A stretch of DNA of 64,000 bases from a virus (taxonomy: Duplodnaviria; Heunggongvirae; Uroviricota; Caudoviricetes). The position numbers and the translations under genes are program-made. Positions within the stretch are counted from its first letter, which is position 1. Each line of letters opens with the position of its first letter. The notes beneath the pieces are model-generated. The model saw only the letters and a program-made list of their open reading frames with translations, had not been told where the DNA came from and did not search any database. This document shows positions 1 to 52,381 of the stretch, piece by piece. The stretch lies in the IMG/VR virus record IMGVR_UViG_3300025009_000058. One strand, written 5' to 3'.

Positions 1-697
1 TTGCAAAAGCTTGTCTGTAAGAATAAATAGTTTCAATGTCTCCAGGATTAGGCTCAATAGCTTCAATTGTCTTTGGATGACCTTTTCTTAAATACACATC
101 CCCCTTTGCGTTATTAAAAAGTAATGAGAAATACTCTCCATCAAGAAAAGCATTTTTAACAATTTCTCTTTCTTTTATTTCCATAGAATTAATTCTACGA
201 AATTCTGAAATAACTTCATTAACTTCTTTCACCGGTGTAGAAACTGTGATACCAGTACCAATAACATAATCAATATAATTATCTACTATTCCATTTATCA
301 AAGGATCTAAAGCATATTTTGTCCAACAAGCATCTTGAATCAACCATAGTTCTGAGTTTGTTAAATCAATCTCAGGAACAGAATCCATAGAGCTTAACAT
401 AATATCATTTACATCATTAAAATTCTTTGAAAACTTCTCATCTTTTACTAATTGTTTCTTAACAAATGCTGTAAGCTCTTTTTTACTATTGTCTCTCCTT
501 TCAATCTCACTAAATAAATATTCTGAATTTGAAGAAAGTATTCTAGCTTCTGCAAGTTCATTTTCAATTCGTTCTTTATGTTTCTCATAGAACAAATTAA
601 CAGCTGCTGATGCAGCTTCTTCAGAAGCTTTACTAATCTGAGTATCAATAGTTTCTTGAGTAGTAATTCTAATTTTGAACTTAAATGGATTTTTCAT
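1..697 (-). CDS. Portal (head-tail connector) protein, 5' portion. The gene continues beyond the window start.
   Basis: ATG at 697 on the minus strand. The frame stays open to position 1 (232 codons, translated by eye: MKNPFKFKIRITTQETIDTQISK...). It sits immediately after the terminase genes in transcription order. The portal call is by position and composition only. Confidence 0.45.
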   Translation of the reverse strand, partial: MKNPFKFKIRITTQETIDTQISKASEEAASAAVNLFYEKHKERIENELAEARILSSNSEYLFSEIERRDNSKKELTAFVKKQLVKDEKFSKNFNDVNDIMLSSMDSVPEIDLTNSELWLIQDACWTKYALDPLINGIVDNYIDYVIGTGITVSTPVKEVNEVISEFRRINSMEIKEREIVKNAFLDGEYFSLLFNNAKGDVYLRKGHPKTIEAIEPNPGDIETIYSYRQAFA

Positions 698-704
698 TTA
701 TATC

Positions 705-1733
705 CTATAGATACGGATTATTCAATCTAGATGATGATCTTAAATCTTGTATATCTCTTGGGTCAGTTGAGATACCATTACCATCATTAGATAATAGATA
801 GTTGTCATATTGTGCTTGAGCGTTCTTATAGAACTGGTCTTGATTCTGTTCAAATTCTTGTTCTGCTTGAGTGGTATAATACATCCTTTCATTCATTACA
901 CAATGGAATGTTGCTCCACATATAGCTTGTTCAACATCAAGTGTACCTCCAGGTGGATGATCTATTTTACCAGTAGCACCCACTTCTTGAGCATAGCTTA
1001 ATTCATCTTCAAAGTAGTCTCTATCATAGCCTACATTTTCTGAATTTGGTATATGTAATCTATCATCATAAATCAATTCTCTTAAGGTATATTGAGCTGC
1101 ATTATAGTTTCCTTCAGTTGACTTCTTTGAATAACCTAATTCATTATCATCAAGTTGTAACCAGTGTGCTGTCCTATCAATAGATAAATGACCAGCTCTA
1201 AAACCATAAGTTCTTAAAATCTGAATACTATCTAATGATTGAAATCTATCAAAAGAAATAAGACCAAAATAAAAGTGACGACGAGCTAATTCATAAATTA
1301 GCTCCCTTATTTCACCTAATATAATATCTTCACCTTTCCTTACAGTAATCCTACCCCAGAAGTCACATTTCACAACGGGTAATTTAACTTTTTCTATCTT
1401 TAATTTATCTTTATCATTAGGATTCTCAAGCCAAACTTCTCTATCAACAAAGGAAGGGACATGGCACATGGCTATACCAACAGCATCTCTATTTTGACCT
1501 AAATCTATATGCATAAAACGTCTAAATGTATCTTTGCAGATAAAATCTGGGTCAAAAGTCTTTGTAAATGGATTAAATAAATTAGGATATGGTTTCTTGC
1601 AGTCTTTTATTTTTCTTTTACGTCTGATAAAAGGATGTATACCTCTCTGGGTAATGTTTGCAATATCTCTAATGAAGTTCTCAATATTCCTTTGAGCACT
1701 AGATTGTAGTGACTTTGGTACACGAATAATCAT
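705..1733 (-). CDS. Large terminase, C-terminal nuclease-domain ORF (separate polypeptide)
   Basis: 342 aa. The RNase-H-like terminase nuclease motif I (FMHIDLGQNRDAVGIAMCHV, D...D) and a later acidic region (KIDHPPGG..DVEQA) are present. It follows the TerL ATPase ORF in the same orientation, with two genes in between. Confidence 0.55.
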   Translation of the reverse strand: MIIRVPKSLQSSAQRNIENFIRDIANITQRGIHPFIRRKRKIKDCKKPYPNLFNPFTKTFDPDFICKDTFRRFMHIDLGQNRDAVGIAMCHVPSFVDREVWLENPNDKDKLKIEKVKLPVVKCDFWGRITVRKGEDIILGEIRELIYELARRHFYFGLISFDRFQSLDSIQILRTYGFRAGHLSIDRTAHWLQLDDNELGYSKKSTEGNYNAAQYTLRELIYDDRLHIPNSENVGYDRDYFEDELSYAQEVGATGKIDHPPGGTLDVEQAICGATFHCVMNERMYYTTQAEQEFEQNQDQFYKNAQAQYDNYLLSNDGNGISTDPRDIQDLRSSSRLNNPYL

Positions 1734-1980
1734 GTTTAACTAATTCCTTTTTATTAATGGCTTTAGCTCCACGAAAAATGCAAGTATTTCTATCTGCTTC
1801 AGAAATATTAAAGTGAAACTCAACTATTTTTGTTGTTCTTTCCGGATTCACCCAGTGTGCTTTATCAGGTTCTAACCCTAAAATCTCTGCAGCAAATATT
1901 ACTAATTCTTCTGCAGACTTATCAGAGAATAGATGGGCATGAGGTTTAACAAGACCATGAATATCAGTTACATATATCAT
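1699..1980 (-). CDS. DUF4031-family protein
   Basis: 93 aa. The N-terminus MIYVTDIHGLVKPHAHLFSD...ELVIFAAEILGL resembles the DUF4031 family often found in phages. The start overlaps the upstream gene's stop. Confidence 0.5.
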   Translation of the reverse strand: MIYVTDIHGLVKPHAHLFSDKSAEELVIFAAEILGLEPDKAHWVNPERTTKIVEFHFNISEADRNTCIFRGAKAINKKELVKHDYSCTKVTTI

Positions 1981-2588
1981 TTTTTATTCCCTACTATATC
2001 TAGTAGATTAATTTGCCAACCCATGAGTAAAATTAAATTGGTTAGTGCAATTGCATCTGATAAAGCTCCATGAGGCCGATGAGTTATCTTCATAGTAGAA
2101 GTCCAAGTTGATAATTGATTGTTTACTAGTTTATTCCTTGATTCTCTACATAATTTTAATGTGTCAATATAAACATGATTAGGAGCAGTAGCACCATAAA
2201 ATTCTAGAAAAGCATGTTCAAAAGCGGCACTGTGTGCATATATTGGATGTTCTCCAAGTACTTCTTTCACTTCTTTTATGACTTCTTTGGTATTAAATGA
2301 TGGAAATCCTTTCAATAAATCAACTGATAAGCCATTTCTTTCAGCAGCTTTATCTGAGATGCTTTTAATAGAATAAAACTTATGATATACATCTTTTACT
2401 TGATTACCTATAACTTTTATAATTGCTATTTCAGCTACTTCACCTCCTACATTAGGACTCAAATTAGTAGTTTCTAAATCAACAACATTAAATGTGGGTA
2501 TGTTATGCATATCTTCCTCTTCTATGGGTTCTTCTATTAGTTTTATTAAGTCTTTCTGTAAAATCAATAATCGACTTACTTCACTCAT
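1977..2588 (-). CDS. DnaQ-like DEDDh 3'-5' exonuclease
   Basis: 203 aa. Exo I VVDLETTNL (D-x-E), Exo II YAHSAAFEHAFL and Exo III HGALSDAIALTNL (H-x4-D) are present. An ATGA start/stop overlap couples it to the upstream TerL-ATPase ORF. Confidence 0.7.
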   Translation of the reverse strand: MSEVSRLLILQKDLIKLIEEPIEEEDMHNIPTFNVVDLETTNLSPNVGGEVAEIAIIKVIGNQVKDVYHKFYSIKSISDKAAERNGLSVDLLKGFPSFNTKEVIKEVKEVLGEHPIYAHSAAFEHAFLEFYGATAPNHVYIDTLKLCRESRNKLVNNQLSTWTSTMKITHRPHGALSDAIALTNLILLMGWQINLLDIVGNKK

Positions 2589-3694
2589 TAACCTACCTTT
2601 AAGTACTTAGCAACTTTTGAAAGGTATTCAGCTTCCATTGACACAATTGGAAAGTTTGCAGCATCAGCAGCATCAAGTAATTCTATGACTTTTGGATCAG
2701 ATATAATCTCTGCATTATCAGTATCAATATAAAAATTATCTTTTTTATGGAGTTTTCCATCTTCATCATAACCTCCATTAAATTCAGGGTAAAATTTATG
2801 CCCTTTTGCTTCCCACATGGGTCTTCTTCTGTAAAAGATTCCAGAATCTGGAATAGTACCCTTTTCTTTTGCTTCCTTTACAATTTTATCATGCAATTCC
2901 ATCTGTTTATGCATAAAATCATCGGGAAAGTTTGGAGAACTAATCATACAGATCATACCTGGTAATTTACCATGTTTCATAAATCTTGAAGTCATTCTGT
3001 TGTAAATAGCATTATACATCTCTTCACAAGCATCAAAACTCCCATCAACAGTCTTATTAGAATCCTCAGTAACTTCCAAAAAAGCAGCTTCATCGATAAT
3101 ACTCCCATATAAGTTATAGCCCAATGCTGAAAGAGCAGAGCTTGTACCAGGGAAAATTGTAGTATTGTTTCTTGAGATCCGGATCTCAGTTGTAAATCTT
3201 GAATCAATAGGAAAATAGTCTTTATTAAATCCACACTGGAAGCGATTAAAGACTTCAGTGAATGTTACCTTTTTAGCTTGTTTCTCTGTGCGGTTCATAT
3301 TAATCAATGCTATAACTGAGCTTGGAGCTAAATCAAAGTAATCTTGTGGGTTATCAATCAAGGACAATTCAAACCATTGAAGCCAAGTAATAATAGAAGA
3401 CTTAGTTGTCTTACCAGAGCCGATTCCTTCCATGAAAATAACTAAGTTTACCTGTCTTTTCTTTCTCTCTTCAAACAAATCTACTATATCTTGTAAAACA
3501 CCATCATAAACTTTATCTCCAAAACCTAAAAAGTATGGATCTTTTATCAAAGTTTCAATAGGGATCTGTGCAAACTCATTAGCAATACGTTGATTCCACT
3601 CAAAAACAGCTCCAGTGGTCTTTTTATTATAATCATCTATATAGTCTTGTGCGAACTTATATAAATAATCTTGTGATTCATCTTTTTTTGCCAT
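2588..3694 (-). CDS. terL: Large terminase, ATPase-domain ORF
   Basis: 368 aa. Walker A GIGSGKTT, Walker B LYGSIIDEAAF and the coupling motif MICMISSP are typical of TerL ATPases. The ORF terminates before any nuclease domain. Confidence 0.8.
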   Translation of the reverse strand: MAKKDESQDYLYKFAQDYIDDYNKKTTGAVFEWNQRIANEFAQIPIETLIKDPYFLGFGDKVYDGVLQDIVDLFEERKKRQVNLVIFMEGIGSGKTTKSSIITWLQWFELSLIDNPQDYFDLAPSSVIALINMNRTEKQAKKVTFTEVFNRFQCGFNKDYFPIDSRFTTEIRISRNNTTIFPGTSSALSALGYNLYGSIIDEAAFLEVTEDSNKTVDGSFDACEEMYNAIYNRMTSRFMKHGKLPGMICMISSPNFPDDFMHKQMELHDKIVKEAKEKGTIPDSGIFYRRRPMWEAKGHKFYPEFNGGYDEDGKLHKKDNFYIDTDNAEIISDPKVIELLDAADAANFPIVSMEAEYLSKVAKYLKVG

Positions 3695-3945
3695 TACTTT
3701 AGCTTCTTTATTTTTATAATTGCTTGTTTTGGTATAGATGTTAATCCACTATAAGGCCTATGGTCTATTGTAGTACAACGACTTTCTGCTAAACAAATAC
3801 CTTCTTTAGTATATTCAATTAGAAAACCTACCGATTGACACTGTGATATATCAATATGACAATCTTGTTTACTCAACCAACCCGGTTGACCACTTGAATC
3901 TACCCAATCAACTAATATTAAATCATCTTTCTTAAGTTTCATCAT
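3694..3945 (-). CDS. Hypothetical protein
   Basis: 83-aa ORF translationally coupled to terL (its stop overlaps the terL start). Confidence 0.4.
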   Translation of the reverse strand: MMKLKKDDLILVDWVDSSGQPGWLSKQDCHIDISQCQSVGFLIEYTKEGICLAESRCTTIDHRPYSGLTSIPKQAIIKIKKLK

Positions 3946-3996
3946 AATCTAATTTTATCCTCCAGTGATCTGGTTTCTGATTTGTCCATTCTAGTT

Positions 3997-4215
3997 TCAT
4001 TCAAAAATCTCATTTATCCTATTTCTGATATAACTATTTTCAGGATTTGTAGGAAGATAAGTATTCCATTTTATTGGGTCATTTTCGAAAGGATTGCATC
4101 CATGTTTTTGTGCATTACTTGCCATTAACAAATTATTTGACATCCATTTACTAGCTTCATATCCTTCCAAAGTTATAACAGTTTTGTCATCTTGTTCAAT
4201 AATAATTCTTGCCAT
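3997..4215 (-). CDS. Hypothetical protein
   Basis: 72-aa ORF in the packaging module. Confidence 0.35.
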   Translation of the reverse strand: MARIIIEQDDKTVITLEGYEASKWMSNNLLMASNAQKHGCNPFENDPIKWNTYLPTNPENSYIRNRINEIFE

Positions 4216-4403
4216 TTATAGTCTCCAAGAGTTTTAAGAGCTTTTCTCAGTTATGATATATGTTTTTGGTATCCAGCCTGGTAGAGTAAAACCTTTTATT
4301 CTGGCATAGACTCTGTCACTATATTTGTGCATAATCCAACATTGAATATACACTGGTTTATAACCAGGACCGGCTAACCAAGCCGCAACATCAACATAGG
4401 TCT

Positions 4404-4610
4404 TCATACTTTCTCAGCATCTTCTTCTTTCAGAGTATACAATTTCTTGTCATACTCAAAGTCTGAGAAAGTTTTTAATCTATTTAATATGGCTTCTTTA
4501 TCAGAGCATAATCTCAGGTCAATGAAATACCATTTCCCCAGAAAACCTTTCGGCCTTTTAGCTTTGATTGCACCAAGATAATATGTTTCAGAATTCACAA
4601 CTCCAGCCAT
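4404..4610 (-). CDS. Hypothetical protein
   Basis: 68-aa ORF whose stop abuts the upstream gene's start. Confidence 0.35.
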   Translation of the reverse strand: MAGVVNSETYYLGAIKAKRPKGFLGKWYFIDLRLCSDKEAILNRLKTFSDFEYDKKLYTLKEEDAEKV

Positions 4611-4612
4611 GA

Positions 4613-5389
4613 TTACTCCACAGGAATAGCAGCTTCAACTTTTTTCAAAAATGAATTTTTCATTTGGTCTGGATCTATTTCTCCAGAATGTATTCTATCT
4701 TTATTTCTAAACGGAATGATGACTTGATTCAGAATATCGTTCATGAGGTTCTTAGCCTCTGGGCCGCGAATTCTTCCAGCAATGATCTCAAATATCTGTT
4801 GGACAAATTCTCTGACGGAGGTTGCATCGAGACGCAATTCTCGCTGTATTTTGTTTTTCAGACCCTTGGCTTTCACCAAATCAAGTGTGATACCTCTGAC
4901 AGTCTCAATTTGGTCGAGAGTCATTTCTTCACCCATTGTCATAATATAGTTTTGCAAAGCATATAGCATTTTGATCTCTGTGTCAACAGACATGAGATCT
5001 TTCTCCTCCAGCTCCTCTGCATGTTCCAATAATTCTGACATCCGTGCTGGGAGCCTGTGTGCCGTTGAAAGCTGAATATTATACAATGACCGTCGACCGT
5101 GATTCGAACATTTTCCGAATCCTTTGTGATCTGATCCCCATCCTGCAGTCAAAAGGCATGGACCATATGTTGTTCTATGGCCACAGATTTTTCTTAGTTT
5201 AACTCCTTCTGGCGATATCAACCAATGAGTGCTCTCAGCTGTATCTTCTTCAACCCGATATCCTTGGAGTTTTTTAAGTTTCCGTATGCCACTAATCTGC
5301 CTGCTAACAGTCTTTATAAATTGTCCAGGGTCATCTTTGGTCTTTGATTGTTCTGAGAGAGATCCGAGTCTTATCTGTTGTTTTGCCAT
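4613..5389 (-). CDS. Zinc-ribbon protein, possibly the small terminase subunit by position
   Basis: 258 aa with a CGHRTTYGPC...CSNHG motif and a C-terminal coiled-coil-like region. The gene is markedly GC-richer (about 45%) than its flanks (about 27%). It lies upstream of terL in the same orientation. Confidence 0.5.
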   Translation of the reverse strand: MAKQQIRLGSLSEQSKTKDDPGQFIKTVSRQISGIRKLKKLQGYRVEEDTAESTHWLISPEGVKLRKICGHRTTYGPCLLTAGWGSDHKGFGKCSNHGRRSLYNIQLSTAHRLPARMSELLEHAEELEEKDLMSVDTEIKMLYALQNYIMTMGEEMTLDQIETVRGITLDLVKAKGLKNKIQRELRLDATSVREFVQQIFEIIAGRIRGPEAKNLMNDILNQVIIPFRNKDRIHSGEIDPDQMKNSFLKKVEAAIPVE

Positions 5390-5766
5390 CTAGGATAGAT
5401 CACTTATGTTTTTACGGAAAATTAAAATGGCTTTATTTAGCCTATCCCATCTATATATGCTAAGAACTCAATCAAAGCACAGCGATACAATTTTATTATA
5501 ATTTGGGAATATGGAGATATTTGTTAGCGTATATTTTATCAATTATATAGTCCTGCTTACACTGGATTAGTTTTATGAAAATCCAAAATTAAAGGATATT
5601 CAATATCTCAGTATAATTTCAAATTGGAAGCCGCTTGCAAGTTGAGTGAAGATTTTTTAGGCATGTGAAAGACGGATGAGTCGGGTAAGTTCAAAAATTT
5701 TTTAAGAAATTTTTTGGAAGATGACTAGACTTTGAAATCGTTGCGAGTTGTTAATAGGTGGAATAA

Positions 5767-5858
5767 TTGGATGATTGGATGATTGGATATTGGCTAATCA
5801 GCTTTAGTGGCTAATCAGCTTTAGTGGCTAATCAGCTTTAGTGGCTAACCGGCTATTC
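5767..5858. repeat. Tandem repeats: (TGGATGAT)x2+TGGATAT, then a 17-mer TGGCTAATCAGCTTTAG x3 plus a degenerate fourth copy
   Basis: Read directly: ggatgattggatgattggatattggctaatcagctttagtggctaatcagctttagtggctaatcagctttagtggctaaccggctattc. It lies in a 750-bp noncoding region next to the putative terS. Confidence 0.85.
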
Positions 5859-5898
5859 CGGATACGGGCTTCTCATTGATAAAAAAAGTTGTCAATTG

Positions 5899-5917
5899 AG
5901 TTGTATTATAGTTGTCA
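5899..5917 (+). promoter_or_regulatory. Short-spacer variant of the conserved promoter-like motif, plus orientation
   Basis: gtattatagttgtcaagtg resembles GTATTATATTTGTTTTGTCAA with a shorter middle. It overlaps the palindrome TTGTCAagTGACAA and lies upstream of the plus-strand island. Confidence 0.25.
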
Positions 5918-6137
5918 AGTGACAAAGACGGAAACATGTCCACAGTAGAAATGCTTATTTTCAAGGTTATGGTGTATAGACAAGGCGACGCCCGTCATAT
6001 ATCTTTGAAACTTTTTTTGAGTTGTAATAGTTTGAGTCTTGATAGTTCACAAAATATATATTATTTATTTTTACAAAGTATTGATTTTTGTTTATACATT
6101 CATTAAGTTTCATTTAGTAATTAATTGAGATATAAAC

Positions 6138-6392
6138 ATGGAAACAATAAAAAAAGAATTTAGAATAGTTACTGCAATTGGAAACAAAATAAGATACTTT
6201 GAATCTAAAGTAACCTATGGGAGATACAAGGGTTGGACTATAGTTTTAAATCTTAATAAAACAGAAGCAACTTTAATTCATCAAAATCAAGTTTTTAGGG
6301 TTCTAATTGATGAGGTTGCAACAGCAAAATTAACATCAGGAAATAAAAGAAATAATAATCAAGACTTAAACAATCACATATTAAGAGGTTAA
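6138..6392 (+). CDS. Hypothetical protein (plus-strand island)
   Basis: 84-aa ORF, the first gene of a short plus-strand island inside the minus-strand arm. Confidence 0.45.
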   Translation: METIKKEFRIVTAIGNKIRYFESKVTYGRYKGWTIVLNLNKTEATLIHQNQVFRVLIDEVATAKLTSGNKRNNNQDLNNHILRG

Positions 6393-6518
6393 AATGAAAA
6401 TAGTTGAAGATAAGCAAGAAAATGGAGTAGGTTTATTTTTAGCAATATTAAGCGGTATTTTTTGGTTATTGGGGTGGGCATGGTATTTAAATAATGAATC
6501 ATTTAATTTTATATTTTA
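6393..6518 (+). CDS. Small membrane peptide (41 aa, single TM)
   Basis: Not in the ORF track (shorter than 60 aa). RBS AAGAGG precedes the ATG at 6393. Translation MKIVEDKQENGVGLFLAILSGIFWLLGWAWYLNNESFNFIF*. Confidence 0.35.
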
Positions 6519-6529
6519 AGGGTAATAGC

Positions 6530-6703
6530 ATGGCAAATCAAATTAATAAAAAGAAAAGTTATGTATCGGCTAATATGGTAAGGCATTCCATAGCTTTAAA
6601 TGAACAAAAAAAACCAAGTCCAATTTTTCAAACTGAGGTTAAATATAATGGTTTGAAACATGACTTAAAAAATGACATTAAACAACAAATTTATAAGTTT
6701 TAG
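6530..6703 (+). CDS. Hypothetical protein
   Basis: The track ORF 6494..6703 is trimmed to the internal Met (MANQINKK..). The RBS is weak. Confidence 0.3.
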   Translation: MANQINKKKSYVSANMVRHSIALNEQKKPSPIFQTEVKYNGLKHDLKNDIKQQIYKF

Positions 6704-6838
6704 ACTTAAGATATAACTTTATAAAAAGCAACTTTATAAAAAAATAACTTGACTTTAGTAAAAAAAGAAATTATTTTTAAACAGCTTAATTAAGGTAATT
6801 AAGCTAAAATAAAAACCAAATCAAATAGGAGTAATATT

Positions 6839-7357
6839 ATGTCAGAGCAAAAATTCAGTGATTCCGTAAACATTAACTCACGGACTTCCCAATCTTCAGA
6901 AGCTCAAAAAGCCCTTGAAGTCCCCTTTTCAACTGATGAGAGTAAGAATTTAAAAACTCACCTGCAAGCTGGAAACATTTACTTAGGCAGTTACTCAGGA
7001 ATTGGTTTAAAAAACCATTCATCAAAAATTGAGCCTTTTTCAAGTTTTAGGCACTATTGCCAAAAAAGTAAAAATTTGGGTATCTCTCAAAATCAAGTGG
7101 TAAAAGATGGCGGTTTAAACTTTGAAGCTATTCAAGAAATTGCTAACTCAAAGAAGTTTGTTTCTATTGATGGTGATATTTGCGCAGTTTCATTCGTTGA
7201 AAAAGGAAACGTTTTACTTTTCAGCTTAACCGGATTGAAAAAACGATTTTCAAAAGTTGAAACTGTTCAAAGTAAAATTGAAACCAAAGCCGAAACCAAA
7301 GCCAAAACCGAAGCTAAAACCGAAGTTAAAACCGAAGTTAAAACCGAAGCTAAGTAA
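6839..7357 (+). CDS. Hypothetical protein with a C-terminal (K/E)T(E/K)(A/V) tandem repeat
   Basis: 172 aa. A strong RBS AGGAG lies 7 nt upstream. The C-terminus is ETKAETKAKTEAKTEVKTEVKTEAK. An intrinsic terminator follows. Confidence 0.6.
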   Translation: MSEQKFSDSVNINSRTSQSSEAQKALEVPFSTDESKNLKTHLQAGNIYLGSYSGIGLKNHSSKIEPFSSFRHYCQKSKNLGISQNQVVKDGGLNFEAIQEIANSKKFVSIDGDICAVSFVEKGNVLLFSLTGLKKRFSKVETVQSKIETKAETKAKTEAKTEVKTEVKTEAK

Positions 7358-7364
7358 TAAAAAG

Positions 7365-7390
7365 AAAAGCGGACTAACAATCCGCTTTTC
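7365..7390 (+). terminator. Rho-independent terminator
   Basis: aaaagcgga-ctaacaa-tccgctttt: a 9-bp stem followed by a T tract, directly after the stop of 6839..7357. Confidence 0.7.
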
Positions 7391-7404
7391 GATGTACCTA
7401 AAAA

Positions 7405-7430
7405 AGATATTAAGGTCTTAATGTAGTTTG
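7405..7430. repeat. 26-bp direct repeat, copy 1, with an internal palindrome ATTAAGgtCTTAAT
   Basis: agatattaaggtcttaatgtagtttg. A second copy lies at 7529-7554 (one mismatch). Confidence 0.8.
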
Positions 7431-7528
7431 CGACTCCCGTGAAATTGCTTTAGATTTAAATACTTTATACTTATAGCGAATCCCGTGGAAATCGGACATT
7501 AGTATCTTATTATCCTATATGGCTAATC

Positions 7529-7554
7529 CGATATTAAGGTCTTAATATAGTTTG
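7529..7554. repeat. 26-bp direct repeat, copy 2
   Basis: cgatattaaggtcttaatatagtttg. The region between the copies also holds the imperfect repeats gactcccgtgaaattg and gaatcccgtggaaatcg. Confidence 0.8.
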
Positions 7555-7805
7555 TTGTTCATGTTGTTTCAATTGCTTTGTATATTATATACATTACAAT
7601 GTAGGGAATTGTGTATTGACAAGTGTAAAGTGGGTGGTGAATAGATAAGTATTATATTTGGTTATATAAGGTGAAATGTAAAAATTTTGTGAGAAGTATT
7701 GGGTGAGTTGTGTAATAGGTAAAATCGTAAAAGCCATATCTTATCCTTATATTATAACTACCCACTTCCATGGTGTTCGCAGGCTTATCTCTGTCCATTT
7801 GCGCG

Positions 7806-7841
7806 CATAAAAAATCCCGGATGGTTAATATGATCCGGGAT
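7806..7841 (-). terminator. Rho-independent terminator for the minus-strand gene 7876..8220
   Basis: Hairpin atcccggat-ggttaatat-gatccggga. It is followed on the minus strand by TTTTTT (plus aaaaaa at 7809-7813), 35 nt after the stop. Confidence 0.65.
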
Positions 7842-7875
7842 CAAGTCAATCATAAATAGTTAAGGAGGCTACTAA

Positions 7876-8220
7876 TTAATATCCGAGAACATATCCGGCT
7901 TTTCCATTATGACGAATAACTCTATTAGCCAATGTAGATAAAGCCATGTTCAGTTTCGATCTTTTTAATTGCAACGATTTGTTTTCTTTTGCTTCTTGAA
8001 TTGATATACCGGTGATAGCTTTAAAGTCTGCAATACTCATACCAGCAGCTTTAGCCAACGCGTAGTTATTAAAACCAATCCGGTGAAGAGCTTGAACAAA
8101 ATTCATTTTATAAAGAGGTTTTGTTCTCTTAAAGCCCTTTTTGTTCGGCGATCCTGTTTCTGATATAACGATCATTTTTAATTTGTTAATGTTATTTTGA
8201 AGTGTAGTTCTAGTAGCCAT
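7876..8220 (-). CDS. Putative DNA-binding protein (HTH-like)
   Basis: The track ORF is trimmed to the internal Met (MATRTTLQNN...), so the conserved promoter motif at 8248-8269 lies upstream rather than inside the gene. The basic region KGFKRTKPLYKMNFVQALHRIGFNNYALAKAAGMS looks HTH-like. Confidence 0.5.
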   Translation of the reverse strand: MATRTTLQNNINKLKMIVISETGSPNKKGFKRTKPLYKMNFVQALHRIGFNNYALAKAAGMSIADFKAITGISIQEAKENKSLQLKRSKLNMALSTLANRVIRHNGKAGYVLGY

Positions 8221-8247
8221 TTTAATTTCCTTAAATATTATTTTTGA

Positions 8248-8269
8248 TTGACAAAACAAATATAATACA
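8248..8269 (-). promoter_or_regulatory. Conserved promoter-like motif, copy (ttgacaaaacaaatataataca)
   Basis: 28 nt upstream of the 8220 start. Confidence 0.6.
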
Positions 8270-8274
8270 TCCGT

Positions 8275-8496
8275 TTATTTATATACTCTTTTCAACTCAA
8301 GATTAACAAATTTAATAAATGAATCAAAAGAGTCAAATCCTCTAATCTTTACTTCTTCAAGTAACTTATTTTGAAAACCATTCAAATAGTCTTCTCTCTC
8401 TGAAGTTGAAGCATAATATGATTTCTCTCTTGATGATAAAAAAGATTCAATTATATAGCCTAGAACAAAATGAGACAATAAATTTAAATTAATCAT
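8275..8496 (-). CDS. Hypothetical protein
   Basis: 73-aa ORF. Confidence 0.4.
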   Translation of the reverse strand: MINLNLLSHFVLGYIIESFLSSREKSYYASTSEREDYLNGFQNKLLEEVKIRGFDSFDSFIKFVNLELKRVYK

Positions 8497-8595
8497 CTGA
8501 ACTTCTCCTCAATTAATATTATTTTATAAAATTGATATTTCAAAATTAATATCTAAATTTTCTTTTGTCAACATTTATTTAACTTTTTATAATTT

Positions 8596-8620
8596 AATTA
8601 CCAAACATAAAAACATCTCT
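8596..8620 (-). promoter_or_regulatory. Degenerate copy of the promoter-like motif (taattaccaaacataaaaacatctc)
   Basis: Upstream of 8275..8496. Confidence 0.3.
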
Positions 8621-8635
8621 AATTTTAGATAATAT

Positions 8636-8720
8636 CATCAGCGAACCCATCGGACTTCGTCCTACCATCTTATATTATCCTGCCGGCTTCCTACTTCAGA
8701 GCCCTCTTATCTTTGAAACA
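8636..8720. repeat. Structured noncoding element A, with a partial repeat at about 10780-10860
   Basis: Shared blocks are atcagcga, a GGAC..GTCC hairpin, atcttatatt and ggcttc. Both copies sit just upstream of promoter-motif copies. Confidence 0.5.
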
Positions 8721-8774
8721 TAGAGGCTTACTTCTTATTAATAAGCTTTCTTATATCTACAAGTTCTTAGCTAT

Positions 8775-9197
8775 CTAATATGATTCACAATAAAATAATA
8801 TTGTTCTATCAACACCCGCTTCCGCAAATACATCATTCCATTGCTCATCATTCAATAAAGCCTTTATGAAAGCATCCCAAATCTTCTGATCTTCTGCATA
8901 TTCTTCTTTAATCAAAAGCCCGTGAGAGACAAAAGCTTCTTTAAAATGGAATGTAGCCGAGATTGAATAAGCACCGTGTAGCTCAACCCAAGTAAATAAT
9001 ATGACCATAGAGCCAATATGTTTTGATATTGCATTAATAGCATCTATCCTACGTTGTTCTCCATCTTTGTATTCTTCCCACTCAGGTCTTATACCAAAGT
9101 CTGGATTAGTATAATGAGCTTTAATAAATGTAGTACCAAGATCAACTCCGTCAGCATTAACATATACTTTTGCAATTACATCTTGTTTCATTTTCAA
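8775..9197 (-). CDS. Hypothetical protein
   Basis: 140-aa ORF. Confidence 0.5.
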   Translation of the reverse strand: MKMKQDVIAKVYVNADGVDLGTTFIKAHYTNPDFGIRPEWEEYKDGEQRRIDAINAISKHIGSMVILFTWVELHGAYSISATFHFKEAFVSHGLLIKEEYAEDQKIWDAFIKALLNDEQWNDVFAEAGVDRTILFYCESY

Positions 9198-9589
9198 TCC
9201 TCCTCATTTATATGTGAATAAATCTTTTTAACATTACCAAACTTCTTTTTGTATTCCCGAATTAACCTCAACTCTTCGGGTTCAGGCTTCCCAAACAATC
9301 TTGTACTACAGATAATAAGATAATCTGCTAATTCCGGATCTTCTATCCCATCAATAAATGCATCAAACTGTGCCAGTCTTTTATTCCTGATTTTACCCCA
9401 ATCAGATCTTCTATATTCTTGTTCTTCTTTGAGTATCTTTTTTTCATCAATTGAAGTTCTAATGCCATTAATAACGTTTTCAGAATAATATTCATCTATC
9501 TTTATTTGTGCTTTTTGTATTACTTCCGCTTGAGTTGGAGGAACATTTTTAATTGTTTTAATCCGCAGTGTATCTTGGTAAACTTCCAT
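9194..9589 (-). CDS. Hypothetical protein
   Basis: 131-aa ORF overlapping its downstream neighbour by 4 nt. Confidence 0.5.
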   Translation of the reverse strand: MEVYQDTLRIKTIKNVPPTQAEVIQKAQIKIDEYYSENVINGIRTSIDEKKILKEEQEYRRSDWGKIRNKRLAQFDAFIDGIEDPELADYLIICSTRLFGKPEPEELRLIREYKKKFGNVKKIYSHINEED

Positions 9590-9618
9590 TTTTTGCCTCC
9601 TTATAGCTTATTAGTTAA

Positions 9619-10143
9619 TTAGTCTTCAATAATATAAAGGTTCATTTCATAATTTGGATTCAATTTTTTAATTTCTTCTTCAACCCTATTATGCCTTTCT
9701 TTATCCTTCTTTGATATTGTATATTTAAGCTTCAATGGGATGAATTTTGAAGAACGGATTGTTTGACTTGTATCATCAAGAGTTTTTAAATAATGATTTA
9801 TAACAATTTTTGAAATGAGGATTGGTTTTTGAGCAATTAGTGATTCAATTTTTTTATTAAAGAAGCCAAATTCCATACCATATTTGGTTATTAACTCAAC
9901 AAGGAGAGGATTGTTTTTGGCTGCAATAGCTTGATTCAATTCAAGAACAAAAGGCTTTACCCTATTTGATTCTTTATACATATTCAATAATTTTGTTCTT
10001 TGAGCATCTTTAATTTTTTGAGCTTCTTCCGCTTCAGTTAAGTATGTTTTTTGTTTAGGAAGGGTAGAACAAAAGCATTTTGTATTATGATGTACTTTTA
10101 TTCTTACCTGCTTCAAATTGATTGTATCAAAATATTGTTGCAT
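9619..10143 (-). CDS. Hypothetical protein
   Basis: Trimmed to the internal Met (MQQYFDT..). This Met has the strong RBS AAAGGAGG and leaves the promoter motif at 10179-10200 upstream of the gene. Confidence 0.5.
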   Translation of the reverse strand: MQQYFDTINLKQVRIKVHHNTKCFCSTLPKQKTYLTEAEEAQKIKDAQRTKLLNMYKESNRVKPFVLELNQAIAAKNNPLLVELITKYGMEFGFFNKKIESLIAQKPILISKIVINHYLKTLDDTSQTIRSSKFIPLKLKYTISKKDKERHNRVEEEIKKLNPNYEMNLYIIED

Positions 10144-10178
10144 TACGTTGCCTCCTTTTGAATTATTTTTTATTTTAA

Positions 10179-10200
10179 TTGACAATTCAAAAATAAATAC
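10179..10200 (-). promoter_or_regulatory. Promoter-like motif copy (ttgacaattcaaaaataaatac)
   Basis: 36 nt upstream of the 10143 start. Confidence 0.45.
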
Positions 10201-10416
10201 TTTTATCAATATTATCAACCATTTTTTAACTTTATTAACATATATAACAGAGCAATCTAAGAGCACACCTCTGCCCCAAAAAGATTATTATAATTATCAG
10301 TTATGCCTGCTTGTCCAGACGTCTGAAAGTTATATAACTTTCTGGGACATTAGTGTATCATCCATATGGGTGAGATAGCTGACATCTTTGCCCAGATGAT
10401 AGCGCGCAATAAAATG

Positions 10417-10728
10417 TTACTGTATGGAGCTTATAATAAAAATATCTTCATTATTTTGAGAGATCCAAACCATTGTTTCATCATCAAATGTGATGTTAAA
10501 ATACTCTTTCAATCCTTCAACTTCTTGTTTGGACATTAGATTATCATAACCAGCATTAATAGATACCATATGTAGAGTTGTATTACCTGGATCATCCGTT
10601 AGCTGTGATAAATCATAATGAGTAAATTTTGCTTTAATATTAGGTTTTATAGTATGATAATATTCTTCAATAGCATCGGAGTAAAGATGTTTTTCTGCAT
10701 TAATTGTAAATGGCATCTGGTACCTCAA
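10417..10728 (-). CDS. Hypothetical protein
   Basis: 103 aa. SD GAGGT lies 8 nt before the ATG. Confidence 0.5.
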   Translation of the reverse strand: MRYQMPFTINAEKHLYSDAIEEYYHTIKPNIKAKFTHYDLSQLTDDPGNTTLHMVSINAGYDNLMSKQEVEGLKEYFNITFDDETMVWISQNNEDIFIISSIQ

Positions 10729-10741
10729 TTTTATTATTTAA

Positions 10742-10763
10742 TTGACAAAACAAATATAATACA
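10742..10763 (-). promoter_or_regulatory. Promoter-like motif copy (ttgacaaaacaaatataataca)
   Basis: 14 nt upstream of the 10728 start. Confidence 0.6.
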
Positions 10764-10769
10764 GCTATC

Positions 10770-12060
10770 TAATCCTATATCATTAATCAGCGAGTCCAGT
10801 GGACGAAGTAAGTCGCAGCTATCATATCTTATATTCTGGGCTTCTTTCCTCAACTTATGTATTATATCCCATAGTTTGTGCCTATTAGCCGGTCAAAGAT
10901 GGAGATCTGGGCTAAGTATTGTATATTGGCAACAATGGTATCTTTTTACCAAGGTTTGCCAACGACTACAAAAGAAAGCCCGACGACTCCAAAGTATGCC
11001 AAGGATACAATTGGAATTTGCAATAGGGGCACATTTGCTATCTGGTGTGGTTATTGAGAGCTGTTCGTTGGATATCCTTGAATAATCTACGGGAGCCATT
11101 TTGGATAGATAAAGTTACTTATATTGAAAAGAAAAACAAACTAGGGGCTCATTGGCTAACCGGCTTGAAGCTGGAACATCGTTTCAAGTTACTGGAACAG
11201 TGGAACATTTTGTTCCATCTATCAATTACAAGATGTTTCAAGTTGCTGGAACATCTATTCCAGCCTAATGGCGGCTGCACGGAACTGACAGGTCGCTTTT
11301 ATTGAATATTAATACATAGTAACATAGCCGGTTAGCCATTTAAAACTGGTTAAGCTTATAGCCATTTTATCCGTCCCAGCCGGTTAAATTTACATTTTTC
11401 CTTTTCTTTTCCATTACATTCATTATCCTACTATTATTCCTATTGTATGTTAAAAGATAGAGTTTTCTTTGAAAAGATATTTTATTTTATCCATTCAATA
11501 CATTACTCTTAGCATATTTTCCTTATATATTTATGTTAATGTATGTATTTGGAATGCTATTGTTTTTAGTTTAAGTCTTATAATGAATAGTATTTATTAT
11601 ATAAAGAATACAACTTATAAGGGCACCAAACTTTTAACGTACACCCCCAAAGTAATGAGTACTATAATATAAATTTGATAGGTGGCGGGTGAGAGGACGG
11701 ACGGAGGCTGTGAAGTGTCCAGATGTGGAGATGATTGTATTTTGGATATTTTGGAAAATTTATTGAATTGGACTATCTGTGTGTGGAGAATGGGATATGG
11801 AGTCAATATTTTGAAAAGAGAGTCAAATGGTATCTGTGGGACCATCCCAAGACCAGATGATCAGAACCGACCAAGATGTCAGGTCTGTGGAATACTGCGT
11901 TGTGAAAGTCAGATTGTCATTTTGGTGATCTTTCTGAATATCGTTCAAATGTTTAGTGAGAAGATCTGTGACCAACGGGGCATTCTTGGAGGATATGATT
12001 CTGGATTGATGAGCTCTCAGTGAAGATGATTTTGATGTAGGCACTATCTGTTTTTTGGTT
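10770..12060. other. GC-elevated, ORF-poor noncoding island with iteron-like repeats
   Basis: No convincing ORF on either strand; track ORFs here carry the DNA repeats. CTGGAACA occurs four times at 11170-11262, with a palindrome tggaacattttgttcca at about 11205. There are repeats of c(c/t)ggtta(a/g)..agccatttt at 11300-11390 and an AT-rich tract at 11400-11680. Confidence 0.5.
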
Positions 12061-12280
12061 TTTATGCCAATTTTATAGATAATTACAGCGAAAATTGAAC
12101 AAAGTATTGACCAAGTCATAACAAACAAAATAATATCTATTAATGTCATCATTTATCCTTTTTATTAATTTCCATTACCTTTTTGAATCTCGAGCTTCTC
12201 ATTTTCATTAATTTATACTTCAAGTGCATTGATGTCACTTAACCTTTGTTTAAACTCTTCTATAGACATCACGTAATACT

Positions 12281-12589
12281 TCACAATTCATCTCCATTTT
12301 TAAAAGGTAATTCATCTTCAATAAATTTAATATAATTCTTTCTCAAATTTTTCAATTTGGAAATAATAGCAGATTCTAATTCAAGGTCAGGTAAAAGATC
12401 TTCAGAAATTGTTATTATGTATCTTGGTTCATGTGGTAACAAACTTTTTCTCAATGAAAGATTAGTAACTTCAATTGAATCAGAATCTTTCAACAACAAT
12501 GCATCAATTTCATCTATCTTGTTTTGAAGCTGTGATATAATCTTAATCTTTTTTTGAAATTCTTGCAAAGTCAATTTAATTTGTCCCAT
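12281..12589 (-). CDS. Hypothetical protein
   Basis: 102-aa ORF. Confidence 0.45.
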   Translation of the reverse strand: MGQIKLTLQEFQKKIKIISQLQNKIDEIDALLLKDSDSIEVTNLSLRKSLLPHEPRYIITISEDLLPDLELESAIISKLKNLRKNYIKFIEDELPFKNGDEL

Positions 12590-12824
12590 TTACGTCTTCC
12601 TTATATGAATAATGTATACAAATAGTTGTTGTGATTGGTGCACCACCATAAAGAGAATGTGATTGTGAGGTTGATAATAGAACTTTAATTGTTAAATCAT
12701 TCTTAGTCTTTCTCAAATGTTCCATAAACAAATTGGCTTCTGTTTCAATCCTTTTAGTATTATCAATACTCTCAAAAATAGCAATTTCATTATAAGTTTT
12801 CATCTTTAACCTCAAGCTTATCAA
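12576..12824 (-). CDS. Hypothetical protein
   Basis: 82-aa ORF. Confidence 0.4.
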   Translation of the reverse strand: MISLRLKMKTYNEIAIFESIDNTKRIETEANLFMEHLRKTKNDLTIKVLLSTSQSHSLYGGAPITTTICIHYSYKEDVNGTN

Positions 12825-13296
12825 TCAATTCTTGAATTCCTTGCAAAGCAGATGGTAGATATATTCGGTCAATAACTTTGTATTCTGACTCCAAGTTATT
12901 GTATTCAATTATATAAGACCGAATATTCAAAAGATTTTTCATCAAACTATTATCTAGTATTGGAAAAGTGAGCTCTCCAACAATAACCTCTTGATATTGT
13001 TTCTTCAATTTGAGAAGGCTATCTACAAGAACAGTTTTTGAAAGAATGTCTTCAATGAAAGCGTCTGATAATGTTATCGTAGTTTGATCATCAATATCCT
13101 GGTCGTTTGCCAATCTAATTTTGAAGCCATCAATTCGAATAGGGCCTTTATGAGCTAAGATCTCATCTATTTTATCAATATTTTCTCTGGTCTCTTTAAC
13201 ACAATCAGAGCGACTCATTAATTCATCTTCAGATATTTTTATTACTGCTTTCATTTTGTACCTCAATTTATTTATTTCTATATTTATCTGCGACAT
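12790..13296 (-). CDS. Hypothetical protein
   Basis: 168-aa ORF. Confidence 0.5.
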   Translation of the reverse strand: MSQINIEINKLRYKMKAVIKISEDELMSRSDCVKETRENIDKIDEILAHKGPIRIDGFKIRLANDQDIDDQTTITLSDAFIEDILSKTVLVDSLLKLKKQYQEVIVGELTFPILDNSLMKNLLNIRSYIIEYNNLESEYKVIDRIYLPSALQGIQELIDKLEVKDENL

Positions 13297-13462
13297 TCTT
13301 CAGTGTATTAAAATGTCTTGGTGAAAGATCTCCTTTTTGAGTATAATATTTATGCGTACTCTTTATGAAACCTAATTCCCAATCAGTTAATTCTTTCTCA
13401 TGTCTCAAAACAATATTAATATTTTCAGAAATGATTTTTGTTCTAATATTACTTAGTGTCAT
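13268..13462 (-). CDS. Hypothetical protein
   Basis: 64-aa ORF. Confidence 0.35.
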   Translation of the reverse strand: MTLSNIRTKIISENINIVLRHEKELTDWELGFIKSTHKYYTQKGDLSPRHFNTLKNVADKYRNK

Positions 13463-13640
13463 AAGTTACTGAGATTGTTATTTCAATAGTTTGAAGAGAC
13501 CTGTTATGAGAATAGTCTCCACTGCGTAATATATCCAATAATTCAGGAACTGCTTCTTGTAATTTTGAAGTTGTTGCTTTTGAAATAATCTGCTGTTTCT
13601 TCAAAGTCTTACTGGCTGTTTTAATCTTTCTTAAGCTCAT
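13449..13640 (-). CDS. Hypothetical protein
   Basis: 63-aa ORF. Confidence 0.35.
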   Translation of the reverse strand: MSLRKIKTASKTLKKQQIISKATTSKLQEAVPELLDILRSGDYSHNRSLQTIEITISVTYDTK

Positions 13641-14034
13641 CTAATAATTCCATTGAATATTTATTCAAAATAGACTGAAGATAATCAGCTCTATCATTTA
13701 ACAATTTTAATATAGCTTTAGGTGAGGGAGGTAAATCCTCATAATCATAAAGTATGTAACTAGGATGAGATTTACATCTCTTAAAATGATCATCTTGACC
13801 TAAAATACATTTATTACAATTATCTGACATACCAAAAAAATGATATGGAAAATAAACTTGCTCACATAATAAACAAGTACCAAATACGTTTAGAACATAT
13901 TTATTTTTTAATTTCTTGGGCACTTTTCCTGCAGAAAAGTCTTCTAATTCTTTATAAACTTGTTTCTCAGTAATACTTCTATATCGTCGAATAACCTCTT
14001 TTAAAGTATCAATATGTTCTTTAGAATATGTCAT
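13621..14034 (-). CDS. Cys-rich (putative zinc-binding) protein, paralog 3 of a tandem triplet
   Basis: MTYSKEHIDTLKEVIRRY.., then CLLC..x..C.KCIL...H..C. Confidence 0.55.
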   Translation of the reverse strand: MTYSKEHIDTLKEVIRRYRSITEKQVYKELEDFSAGKVPKKLKNKYVLNVFGTCLLCEQVYFPYHFFGMSDNCNKCILGQDDHFKRCKSHPSYILYDYEDLPPSPKAILKLLNDRADYLQSILNKYSMELLDELKKD

Positions 14035-31364: not shown

Positions 31365-31382
31365 GTAAATCCTTTTTATTTG

Positions 31383-31456
31383 CGGAGGCGTTAGGACTCG
31401 AACCTAAATCCCATATCATTTCTGATACGATAATTACCATTATTACAACATCTCCG
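31383..31456 (-). tRNA. tRNA-like element, possibly a tRNA pseudogene or a noncanonical tRNA
   Basis: The minus-strand sequence folds with a canonical T-arm (TTAGG-TTCGAGT-CCTAA). It has a 7-8 bp acceptor stem (GGAGATG / CGCCTCC with one A-C mismatch), a D-arm with GG in the loop and a total length of 73 nt. The anticodon arm is TATC-AGAAAT-GATA, a 6-nt loop that lacks U33. No tRNA search program could be run. Confidence 0.4.
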
Positions 31457-52360: not shown

Positions 52361-52381
52361 GCTGAATTATATTTGTTTTGT
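52361..52381 (+). promoter_or_regulatory. Plus-orientation copy of the conserved promoter-like motif (gaattatatttgttttgtaaa)
   Basis: Reverse complement of the minus-arm consensus. It lies 20 nt upstream of the dNMP kinase start. Confidence 0.5.

Follow-up and report, generated by a model that had tools for sequence, protein, structure and literature searches.

What function is served by a block of short direct repeats placed in the spacer that precedes the packaging genes of a tailed phage? The question is raised by positions 5760–5866 of a 64,000-nucleotide stretch of the IMG/VR virus record IMGVR_UViG_3300025009_000058 (Caudoviricetes), hereafter the window, in which an array of repeats lies upstream of a gene encoding a zinc-ribbon (Zn-ribbon) protein of 258 amino acids (aa), located in the position of a small terminase (TerS). 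An earlier note on this DNA had taken the repeats as a candidate packaging site (pac or cos) that would equally fit a replication origin. A pac/cos role of the array is plausible, and the reading that we tentatively favour, at somewhat less than an even chance, is that of a terminase-recognition array, cosB- or pac-like, possibly located at the boundary of a terminal repeat. The sequences show the repeats, their polymorphism, the recurrence of a motif, the gene order and a layout common to two relatives; within the favoured reading we infer the identity of the Zn-ribbon protein as TerS, its binding to the repeat units and the start of cutting or packaging at the array.

The repeat array and its copy number

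The array, together with the spacer in which it is found, is composed as follows (positions are those of the window; TRF, Tandem Repeats Finder):

5390–6137, gene-free spacer of 748 bp between divergent operons
5760–5790 (+), short-unit part of the array, with GGAATAAT, TGGATGAT, TGGATGAT and TGGATAT as units of 7–8 bp (from TRF and the splitting of the tract into units)
5791–5841 (+), three exact copies of the 17-mer TGGCTAATCAGCTTTAG, starting at 5791, 5808 and 5825
5842–5858 (+), terminal (fourth, variant) unit TGGCTAACCGGCTATTC, whose first 13–15 nt are reused exactly elsewhere

The repeats are found where the earlier note had placed them, two copies of TGGATGAT (5768–5775 and 5776–5783) and TGGATAT (5784–5790) being followed by the three exact 17-mers and by a fourth unit. 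Even when up to three mismatches are allowed, the 17-mer has just three sites in the window against 0.22 expected, a count that is reached in none of 100 shuffles. In TRF the 17-mer array (period 17, 3.4 copies, 100% matches) obtains a score of 116, the best of the 56 rows returned for the 64-kb window, and the short-unit part is described by a period of 8 and 3.6 copies. Each 17-mer is itself dimeric, with one sub-unit of 8 nt and one of 9 nt, and the whole tract 5760–5866 can be split into about 12 consecutive units of 8–9 bp, each beginning with Y-R-G-M-T, so that the 8-mers and the 17-mers form a single array; the tract has autocorrelation values of 0.47, 0.66 and 0.56 at lags 8, 17 and 34, respectively. 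The fourth unit, previously regarded as a degenerate copy, is indeed present, but it carries a distinct 13-mer, TGGCTAACCGGCT, which is repeated exactly at other sites described below.

The array is located 371–477 bp upstream of the start of the first gene of the packaging operon, is accompanied by A/T tracts, and has a GC content above that of the surrounding spacer (GC of the window, 0.295). The region had been described as about 540 bp devoid of open reading frames (ORFs); it is gene-free, but the spacer extends over the whole of 5390–6137 and may include one small ORF at 5936–6106. On its left it is flanked by an operon on the minus strand (705–5389 and beyond), and on its right by a small operon on the plus strand (5936/6138–7357).

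The number of 17-mers is polymorphic. Three exact copies are counted in the window and in L002, L003 and L005, which are further assemblies of this phage and identical throughout the region, and two in L030, a 121,551-bp MEGAHIT contig from another sample. The comparison of L030 with positions 1–13711 of the window gives 0 mismatches and one gap of 17 nt; since the two differ by one 17-mer alone, copy number changes faster than any point mutation in these 13.7 kb. A further assembly, L004, is a Logan contig obtained with k=31 that stops inside the array, because an exact tandem repeat of 51 bp breaks assembly at that word size.

A nucleotide similarity search against 50,697 phage records gave no match, and in IMG/VR, searched for the same phage, neither the repeat pattern nor the 258-aa protein turned up. 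A structured non-coding RNA across the array was considered and rejected, since the spacer folds no better than shuffled sequences (z-scores of –0.25 on the minus strand and –1.89 on the plus strand) and Rfam gives zero matches in 5390–6137 at E values up to 1; in the larger interval 4000–8000 there are three Rfam matches, all at 7355–7878 and far below the gathering scores.

The zinc-ribbon gene and the packaging operon

Three genes of the left operon are central to the interpretation of the array:

4613–5389 (–), 258-aa Zn-ribbon protein, helical bundle at the C terminus, encoded by the gene that heads the packaging operon; by its position a small-terminase candidate
2588–3694 (–), 368-aa ATPase resembling the large terminase (TerL), with the Walker A motif GIGSGKT
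705–1733 (–), 342-aa protein with the motifs HIDLG..DA.G and KVDH...D (RNase-H-like acidic), kept with the ATPase in every related locus

In the Zn-ribbon protein, residues C69, C78 and C94 are invariant and H97 is nearly so. A word-indexed search of 5.8 billion proteins returned a sole homologue, P0001, with 63% identity, and 1.84 billion cluster representatives, scanned in full with HMMER, gave 113 relatives (themselves representatives at 50% clustering), 47 of which at E 1e-10 or better. The Zn-ribbon gene is found directly upstream of the large-terminase ATPase gene in L001, in L030 and in 18 IMG/VR loci, where the two genes often overlap; in these 18 loci the homologue of the 342-aa protein comes next and, where the locus reaches that far, a gene of about 565 aa occupies the portal position. 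Furthermore, gp65 of Bacillus phage vB_BboS-125, which is in culture, is matched by the profile of the family (hhalign probability 97%, E 1.3e-10) across the motif CG...C...AG.GTDHPG.G.C, and the gp65 gene is directly upstream of the TerL and portal genes of that phage. Judged from sequence and gene order, the protein is a terS candidate well supported by its position; of what the earlier note had said of it, the Zn-ribbon and the terS position stood, with the 18 loci and vB_BboS-125 behind them. Membership of a known TerS family or fold is not supported.

The structure model of the 258-aa protein reaches a pLDDT of 84 when built with 70 sequences (with two sequences it is 42, and useless), and the 70-sequence model has no specific structural neighbour. 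A match of the family profile to PDB entry 9hnh (E 5e-7) was set aside as spurious, because that entry is a de novo designed solenoid, and a Vibrio phage protein in terS position turned out to be unrelated to the Zn-ribbon family. The raised GC content of the gene (0.41 vs 0.295), from which horizontal acquisition had been supposed, is equally seen in the L006 orthologue (0.34–0.38 vs 0.21–0.29 in its flanks); it is therefore a property of the gene and no evidence of recent horizontal transfer. The ENA gene caller cut the gene to 126 aa in L030 (8702–9082, corresponding to window 4613–4993), the DNA being identical, and the same shortened product is P0002 in the protein library; such truncated gene calls may conceal the family in databases.

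The left operon encodes, in order, the 258-aa protein, four small ORFs, the 368-aa protein, a DnaQ-like exonuclease, a DUF4031 protein and the 342-aa protein; beyond the left end of the window there follow a 590-aa portal protein (phrog_10963, E 3.7e-17) and then tail-fibre and collagen-like proteins. The array lies where a cos or pac site would be expected, next to the gene in small-terminase position that heads a packaging operon. The 368-aa protein has a weak match to phrog_9 (TerL) and matches the N-terminal ATPase part of annotated Vibrio and Rhizobium phage TerL proteins in tblastn with E values of 1e-24 to 1e-33. In L001 the corresponding gene (L001 1677–2924) is interrupted by a LAGLIDADG intein exactly in the P-loop (Walker A), which is a typical intein site of terminases; enlarged ATPase genes, with the match split at the same residue, suggest the same intein in L021 and L022 and possibly in L006. 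The 342-aa protein has no sequence match in the PDB and, from its motifs and its constant association with the ATPase, probably represents the nuclease part of a TerL that is split in two. The large terminase hence appears to be divided into an ATPase gene (368 aa) and a nuclease-like gene (342 aa), with the DnaQ-type exonuclease and the DUF4031 protein between them.

Conserved layout and recurring motifs

Upstream DNA could be used in two relatives only, namely L001 (63% identity) and L006 (49% identity; a 117-kb contig). A metagenome scan for further close relatives gave 4 loci, in all of which the upstream DNA was unusable. The spacers of the window, L001 and L006 show no general alignment; their layout is common and consists, outward from the Zn-ribbon gene, of a spacer of about 300 bp, a conserved box, tandem direct repeats and a TTGTCAATT-type motif. 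In the window the conserved box is

5691–5735 (–), Block B, GTCTAGTCA-N6-CCAAAAAATTT-CTTAAAAAATTTTTGAA with A/T tracts, read towards the Zn-ribbon gene

and its consensus is G(T/A)CTAGT(C/G)(A/T)-N-C(C)AAAA(A/T)TTT, followed by AATTTTTGAA...TCACAT in the window and in L006. Block B is unique in the window and occurs once in L006 and twice in L001, where it reads TAGTCA-N17-TAATAT/TATTAT towards the gene. The repeats of L001 are two copies of CCGTTACGTTGT with a period of 16, and those of L006 four GGGAGAC-type units with a period of about 26 bp; those of the three genomes are unrelated in sequence and occupy the same relative place, beside Block B. The genes upstream of the array are divergent from the Zn-ribbon gene in the window and co-directional with it in L006, and because of this difference in orientation it is with the packaging operon, and not with the other flank, that the repeats and Block B travel; the presence of tandem repeats at the same place in L001 and L006 likewise ties the array to the packaging operon. 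Repeats that differ as the protein diverges are the pattern of specific terS/pac or Nu1/cosB pairs. A second divergent junction of the window (41.4–42.4 kb), used as a comparator, is AT-rich and has no iterons.

The terminal unit of the array is connected with two other regions of the window:

11153–11338, 186-nt element closed by the perfect inverted 13-mer TGGCTAACCGGCT / AGCCGGTTAGCCA, 5.3 kb from the array
10717–12280, second gene-free region (about 1.56 kb), its AT-rich core (0.19–0.26) flanked by GC-rich blocks (0.39–0.45)
7520–7532 (+), motif variant TGGCTAATCCGAT, in a third gene-free region (7391–7876)

The 13-mer of the fourth unit recurs exactly at 11153–11165 (+) and at 11326–11338 (–), and the minus-strand match extends to 15 nt, TGGCTAACCGGCTAT being present at 5842–5856 (+) and 11324–11338 (–). 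With up to two mismatches, six occurrences of the 13-mer are found in comparison with 0.22 expected, and none of 100 shuffles reaches six. The inverted 15-nt pair brackets 5.5 kb, and exact inverted repeats are thus present at both boundaries of a multi-kb block, as in terminal repeats delimited by short inverted repeats. The 186-nt element, which contains internal GGAACA and GTTTCAAGTT repeats, folds far better than shuffled sequences (z –5.4 on the plus and –4.95 on the minus strand). Rfam searches of 10.5–12.5 kb, where this element lies, and of L006 and L030 gave nothing meaningful, and the idea of a miniature inverted-repeat transposable element was dropped, as there were no matches in 185,579 GTDB genomes.

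The heptamer TGGCTAA has 11 sites in the 64 kb, nine of which are clustered, in both orientations, between 5.8 and 11.4 kb. Ends of independent contigs fall close to these sites: in window 1–13711, 4 of 5 lie within 40 nt of a TGGCTAA site vs 3.9% of positions, a post hoc statistic on five ends of which one, that of L004, is explained by the break at k=31. The four ends are those of L004 (5820), L005 (7485), L003 (7517) and L002 (11356); L005 and L003 stop 35 and 3 nt before the motif variant at 7520, and the L001 contig begins 38 nt past its own repeats. This clustering suggests that TGGCTAA sites are discontinuities, such as physical ends, nicks, recombination points or places of population heterogeneity.

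The bracketed segment contains small unknown ORFs only, with a central terminator, and carries three full copies (8254, 10185 and 10748) and one degenerate copy (5902) of a promoter motif discussed below. The region 7391–7876 is between convergent genes, is immediately preceded by a strong bidirectional terminator (7364–7390) and holds a 25-nt direct repeat, GATATTAAGGTCTTAAT(G/A)TAGTTTG, at 7408 and 7531. A 172-aa ORF at 6839–7357, for which no family match was found, has a Lys-Pro repeat end in which AAACCAAAGCCA is present 5.8 times at 7281–7353 (TRF score 70; 97 at period 36).

To the right of the array, the spacer contains the following features:

5887–5925 (+), degenerate rightward copy of a phage-wide promoter motif, 11 nt before the ATG at 5936
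5936–6106 (+), possible 56-aa ORF, first gene of the rightward unit, called by the JGI gene callers
5976–6137, AT-rich stretch adjoining the array, GC 0.24 (0.18 in 6050–6199)

The promoter motif is the 21-nt TATTATATTTGTTTTGTCAAT, found in 10 copies in the window vs 0.02 expected, on the minus strand at 8247, 10741, 16343, 18080, 20168, 26547, 27082, 32477 and 35953 and on the plus strand at 52365. Every copy is oriented with its downstream gene, and those examined are 20–45 nt ahead of a ribosome-binding site and ATG, which points to a large early regulon. The motif includes TATATTTG and agrees with TAnnTTTG, the –7 box of sigma-A promoters in flavobacteria (PMC9723704); this box suggests a host in the Bacteroidota, in line with the best matches of the phage primase, which are to Porphyromonas, Flavobacterium and Cellulophaga phages. 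In the spacer, TGTATTATAGTTGT at 5902–5915 belongs to the class of this motif, with TCAAGTGACAA and then the ATG at 5936 after it; the copy at 5887–5925 contains both a TTGTCAATTG repeat and the palindrome TTGTCAAGTGACAA, which, given the class of TGTATTATAGTTGT, are together a degenerate rightward promoter. The palindrome had been pointed out before and is present at 5912–5925, but as part of the promoter-motif copy rather than as a separate site, and its two hits, against 0.91 expected, are one site read on both strands and not significant alone. The 56-aa ORF gave no family match.

As for the rest of the genome, the phage is large and AT-rich, with contigs of 117–121 kb, and 32–63 kb of the window encode DnaB, a helicase, a primase, a ligase and ThyX. 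Two large glycosyltransferase genes, one fused to a methyltransferase domain, are present at 57215–61203 in the replication-side operon and may serve DNA or surface modification. The sole tRNA call of the window, made by ARAGORN at 31382–31455 (–), is a tRNA-like gene with an unusual anticodon loop, reported as ‘tRNA-??? anticodon (gaaa)’.

Weighing of the explanations and likeness to known systems

If the array takes part in packaging, its units would together bind a DNA-binding protein of the phage, for which the adjoining Zn-ribbon protein is the likeliest candidate, and the array would mark the place where the terminase assembles on concatemeric DNA. Proceeding towards the packaging genes, the order would be a boundary motif, TGGCTAACCGGCTAT (5856–5842), the related units (5841–5760), the A/T-tract box (5735–5691), which is probably a bend or auxiliary site, and the terS-like gene, after which there would come the TerL ATPase, the nuclease half of TerL and the portal. 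The inverted 15-mer at 11324–11338 may delimit a collapsed long terminal repeat on its opposite side, in which case the bracketed segment would consist of small early genes under a host-type promoter motif. A broader form of this proposal is that TGGCTAA(C/T)C(G/A)GCT marks several defined DNA discontinuities (boundaries of terminal repeats, or sites of site-specific nicking or recombination) read by an undescribed family of Zn-ribbon small terminases, the array and the 186-nt hairpin element being the two ends; we regard this as doubtful.

Several observations weigh against a role in terminase recognition. The 258-aa protein has no match in Pfam, PHROG, NCBIfam or PDB and neither homology nor a fold match to any described TerS family, and of 70 family members a single one reaches a terS PHROG, at E 9.5e-4. 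The polymorphism of two vs three copies shows relaxed constraint, the periods of 17, 16 and about 26 bp among relatives are out of helical phase, and distant family members (33–37% identity) have short upstream gaps without tandem repeats. As regards the putative terminal repeat, the motif is also present within it, at 7520, 7925 and 8051, the contig-end statistic is a post hoc one, and L006 has no clear inverted bracket; a candidate equivalent of the remote inverted repeat in L006 is a chance-level 10-mer with a weak fold (z –2.6) and counts as no support. Finally, a complete relative in IMG/VR assembles as a circle with a 137-nt overlap inside coding sequence, which fits any packaging mode; a collapsed terminal repeat, too, would assemble as a circle. 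Termini had also been sought in contig ends (in two contigs, each of about 120 kb, some 21 kb separate the Zn-ribbon gene from the right end), an idea that was dropped because the 137-nt terminal overlap in coding sequence marks the IMG/VR contig as a circular assembly.

The same spacer lends itself to explanations in terms of replication or transcription. In an origin, the repeats would be iterons and the AT-rich 5976–6137 the unwinding element, with 11.1–11.7 kb as a second origin or enhancer, like crr of P4. Three to four contiguous, iteron-like direct repeats of 17 bp do lie beside DNA of GC 0.18–0.24 (5976–6199) and between divergent transcription units, the motif appears again 5.3 kb away beside another AT-rich block (GC 0.19–0.26), and the hairpin-forming 186-nt element folds with a z of about –5. 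However, no initiator or replication gene is adjacent, the ORFs of 5.9–12.2 kb being without family matches; DnaB, the helicase and the primase are at 43.7–63 kb, the cumulative GC-skew minimum is at about 42 kb and not at the array, the units are contiguous at 17 bp and not helically phased, and in the relatives the repeats keep with the packaging gene though the other flank differs. An origin is therefore unlikely, and does not fit the iterons equally well, as the earlier note had it, with no initiator adjacent and the replication genes 36–58 kb away. Transcriptional control is similarly unlikely; here the units would be operator or activator sites for the rightward promoter (5902–5925), for a late packaging promoter, with Block B in that role, or for both. 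The distance of about 45–50 bp between the end of the array and a promoter-motif copy downstream of it, the separation of divergent operons by the spacer, the conservation of Block B in three genomes and a possible regulon of motif copies at 7520, 7925, 8051, 11153 and 11332 would all suit such control. These remote copies, however, are not beside promoter motifs, no regulator gene is identifiable nearby, a promoter-like motif in L006 seemingly faces the array, its orientation being uncertain, and no further copy of Block B or of the 17-mer is found in the 64-kb window, in the additional 7.4 kb of late genes of L030 or in L031, a separate 10.9-kb late-gene fragment.

There are two other explanations. 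The sites TGGCTAA(C/T)C(G/A)GCT, present in both orientations at 5.8–11.4 kb, could be the crossover sites of an inversion or shufflon-like system with several arrangements in the population, as the perfect inverted 15-nt pair round 5.5 kb, the clustering of 9 of the 11 TGGCTAA sites of the 64 kb in both orientations and the gathering of independent contig ends there, as if assembly graphs branched at the sites, would lead one to expect; yet the segment and its surroundings yielded no recombinase gene, the enclosed genes are not cassettes of tail-fibre type, the contig ends are close to the motifs but not exactly at their edges, and all the assemblies that cross the sites have the same arrangement with 0 mismatches, which leaves recombination very unlikely. 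We give equally little credence to a near-neutral minisatellite, produced by replication slippage in a spacer important for its promoters alone. Such a minisatellite would account for copy numbers of 2 vs 3 in otherwise identical genomes, for units that in relatives are unrelated in sequence and period, for the lack of helical phase and for the absence of arrays in distant relatives; it would not lead one to expect arrays at the same relative place in three diverged genomes, a terminal unit whose 13–15-mer is exactly reused at two other sites, or a GC content of the array that exceeds that of the surrounding spacer.

The answer bears on more than this phage. Should the Zn-ribbon protein recognise the array, a first function and a DNA target would be given to a widespread unannotated family, which among uncultured phages of a large clade would replace the classical helix-turn-helix (HTH) small terminase; the finding would show how ends are defined in these phages and provide a testable pair, the 258-aa protein and the 17-bp unit. 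If the array is merely a repeat of variable copy number in a promoter spacer, the finding is an ordinary one.

As a candidate for terminase recognition, the array can be compared with systems described in detail. In lambda the order is cosN, cosB (R sites and a bend; R3, I1, R2, R1), Nu1 (the small terminase) and A. The present locus is similar in having short repeats that are preceded by a candidate cut or boundary motif and followed by the start of a gene in terS position, with a bend-like A/T-tract element alongside and the large-terminase and portal genes next in the operon. Unlike the three spaced 16-bp R sites of lambda, which are in mixed orientation, the units here are contiguous direct repeats of 8–9/17 bp, 370–470 bp separate the array from the start codon, further copies of the boundary motif are present elsewhere, and the adjacent protein is a Zn-ribbon protein and not the winged-helix Nu1; in addition, lambda is known with its cohesive ends and the present system from its sequence. 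With the pac sites of SPP1/SF6 type (pacL-pacC-pacR, bound by the G1P ring) and of P1 (hexamer repeats) it shares short boxes in repeated copies and A-tracts, placed at the small-terminase gene or ahead of it, the proposed recruitment of an oligomeric TerS and the variation of sites between related phages; it differs from them in having no homology to HTH-ring TerS proteins and in a repeat period that is not about 10.5 bp.

With iteron origins (lambda ori, plasmid iterons, P4 ori and crr) the locus has in common the tandem direct repeats beside an AT-rich stretch and, as in P4, a second cluster of the motif a few kb away, whereas its units abut without spacers and are accompanied by packaging rather than replication genes, with no adjacent initiator gene. 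In Twort-like (Kayvirus) and SPO1-like phages, long terminal repeats are bracketed by inverted repeats of 12 bp (PMC7596081). An exact inverted repeat of 13–15 bp similarly brackets a multi-kb block of small early genes beside the packaging genes in the present phage, which is likewise large and lytic and is unrelated to them; here, in contrast, a tandem array forms one end and the 186-nt hairpin element the opposite one, and the redundancy is putative. In its candidate role, the array is a variant of known terminase-recognition regions, joined to an undescribed Zn-ribbon family.

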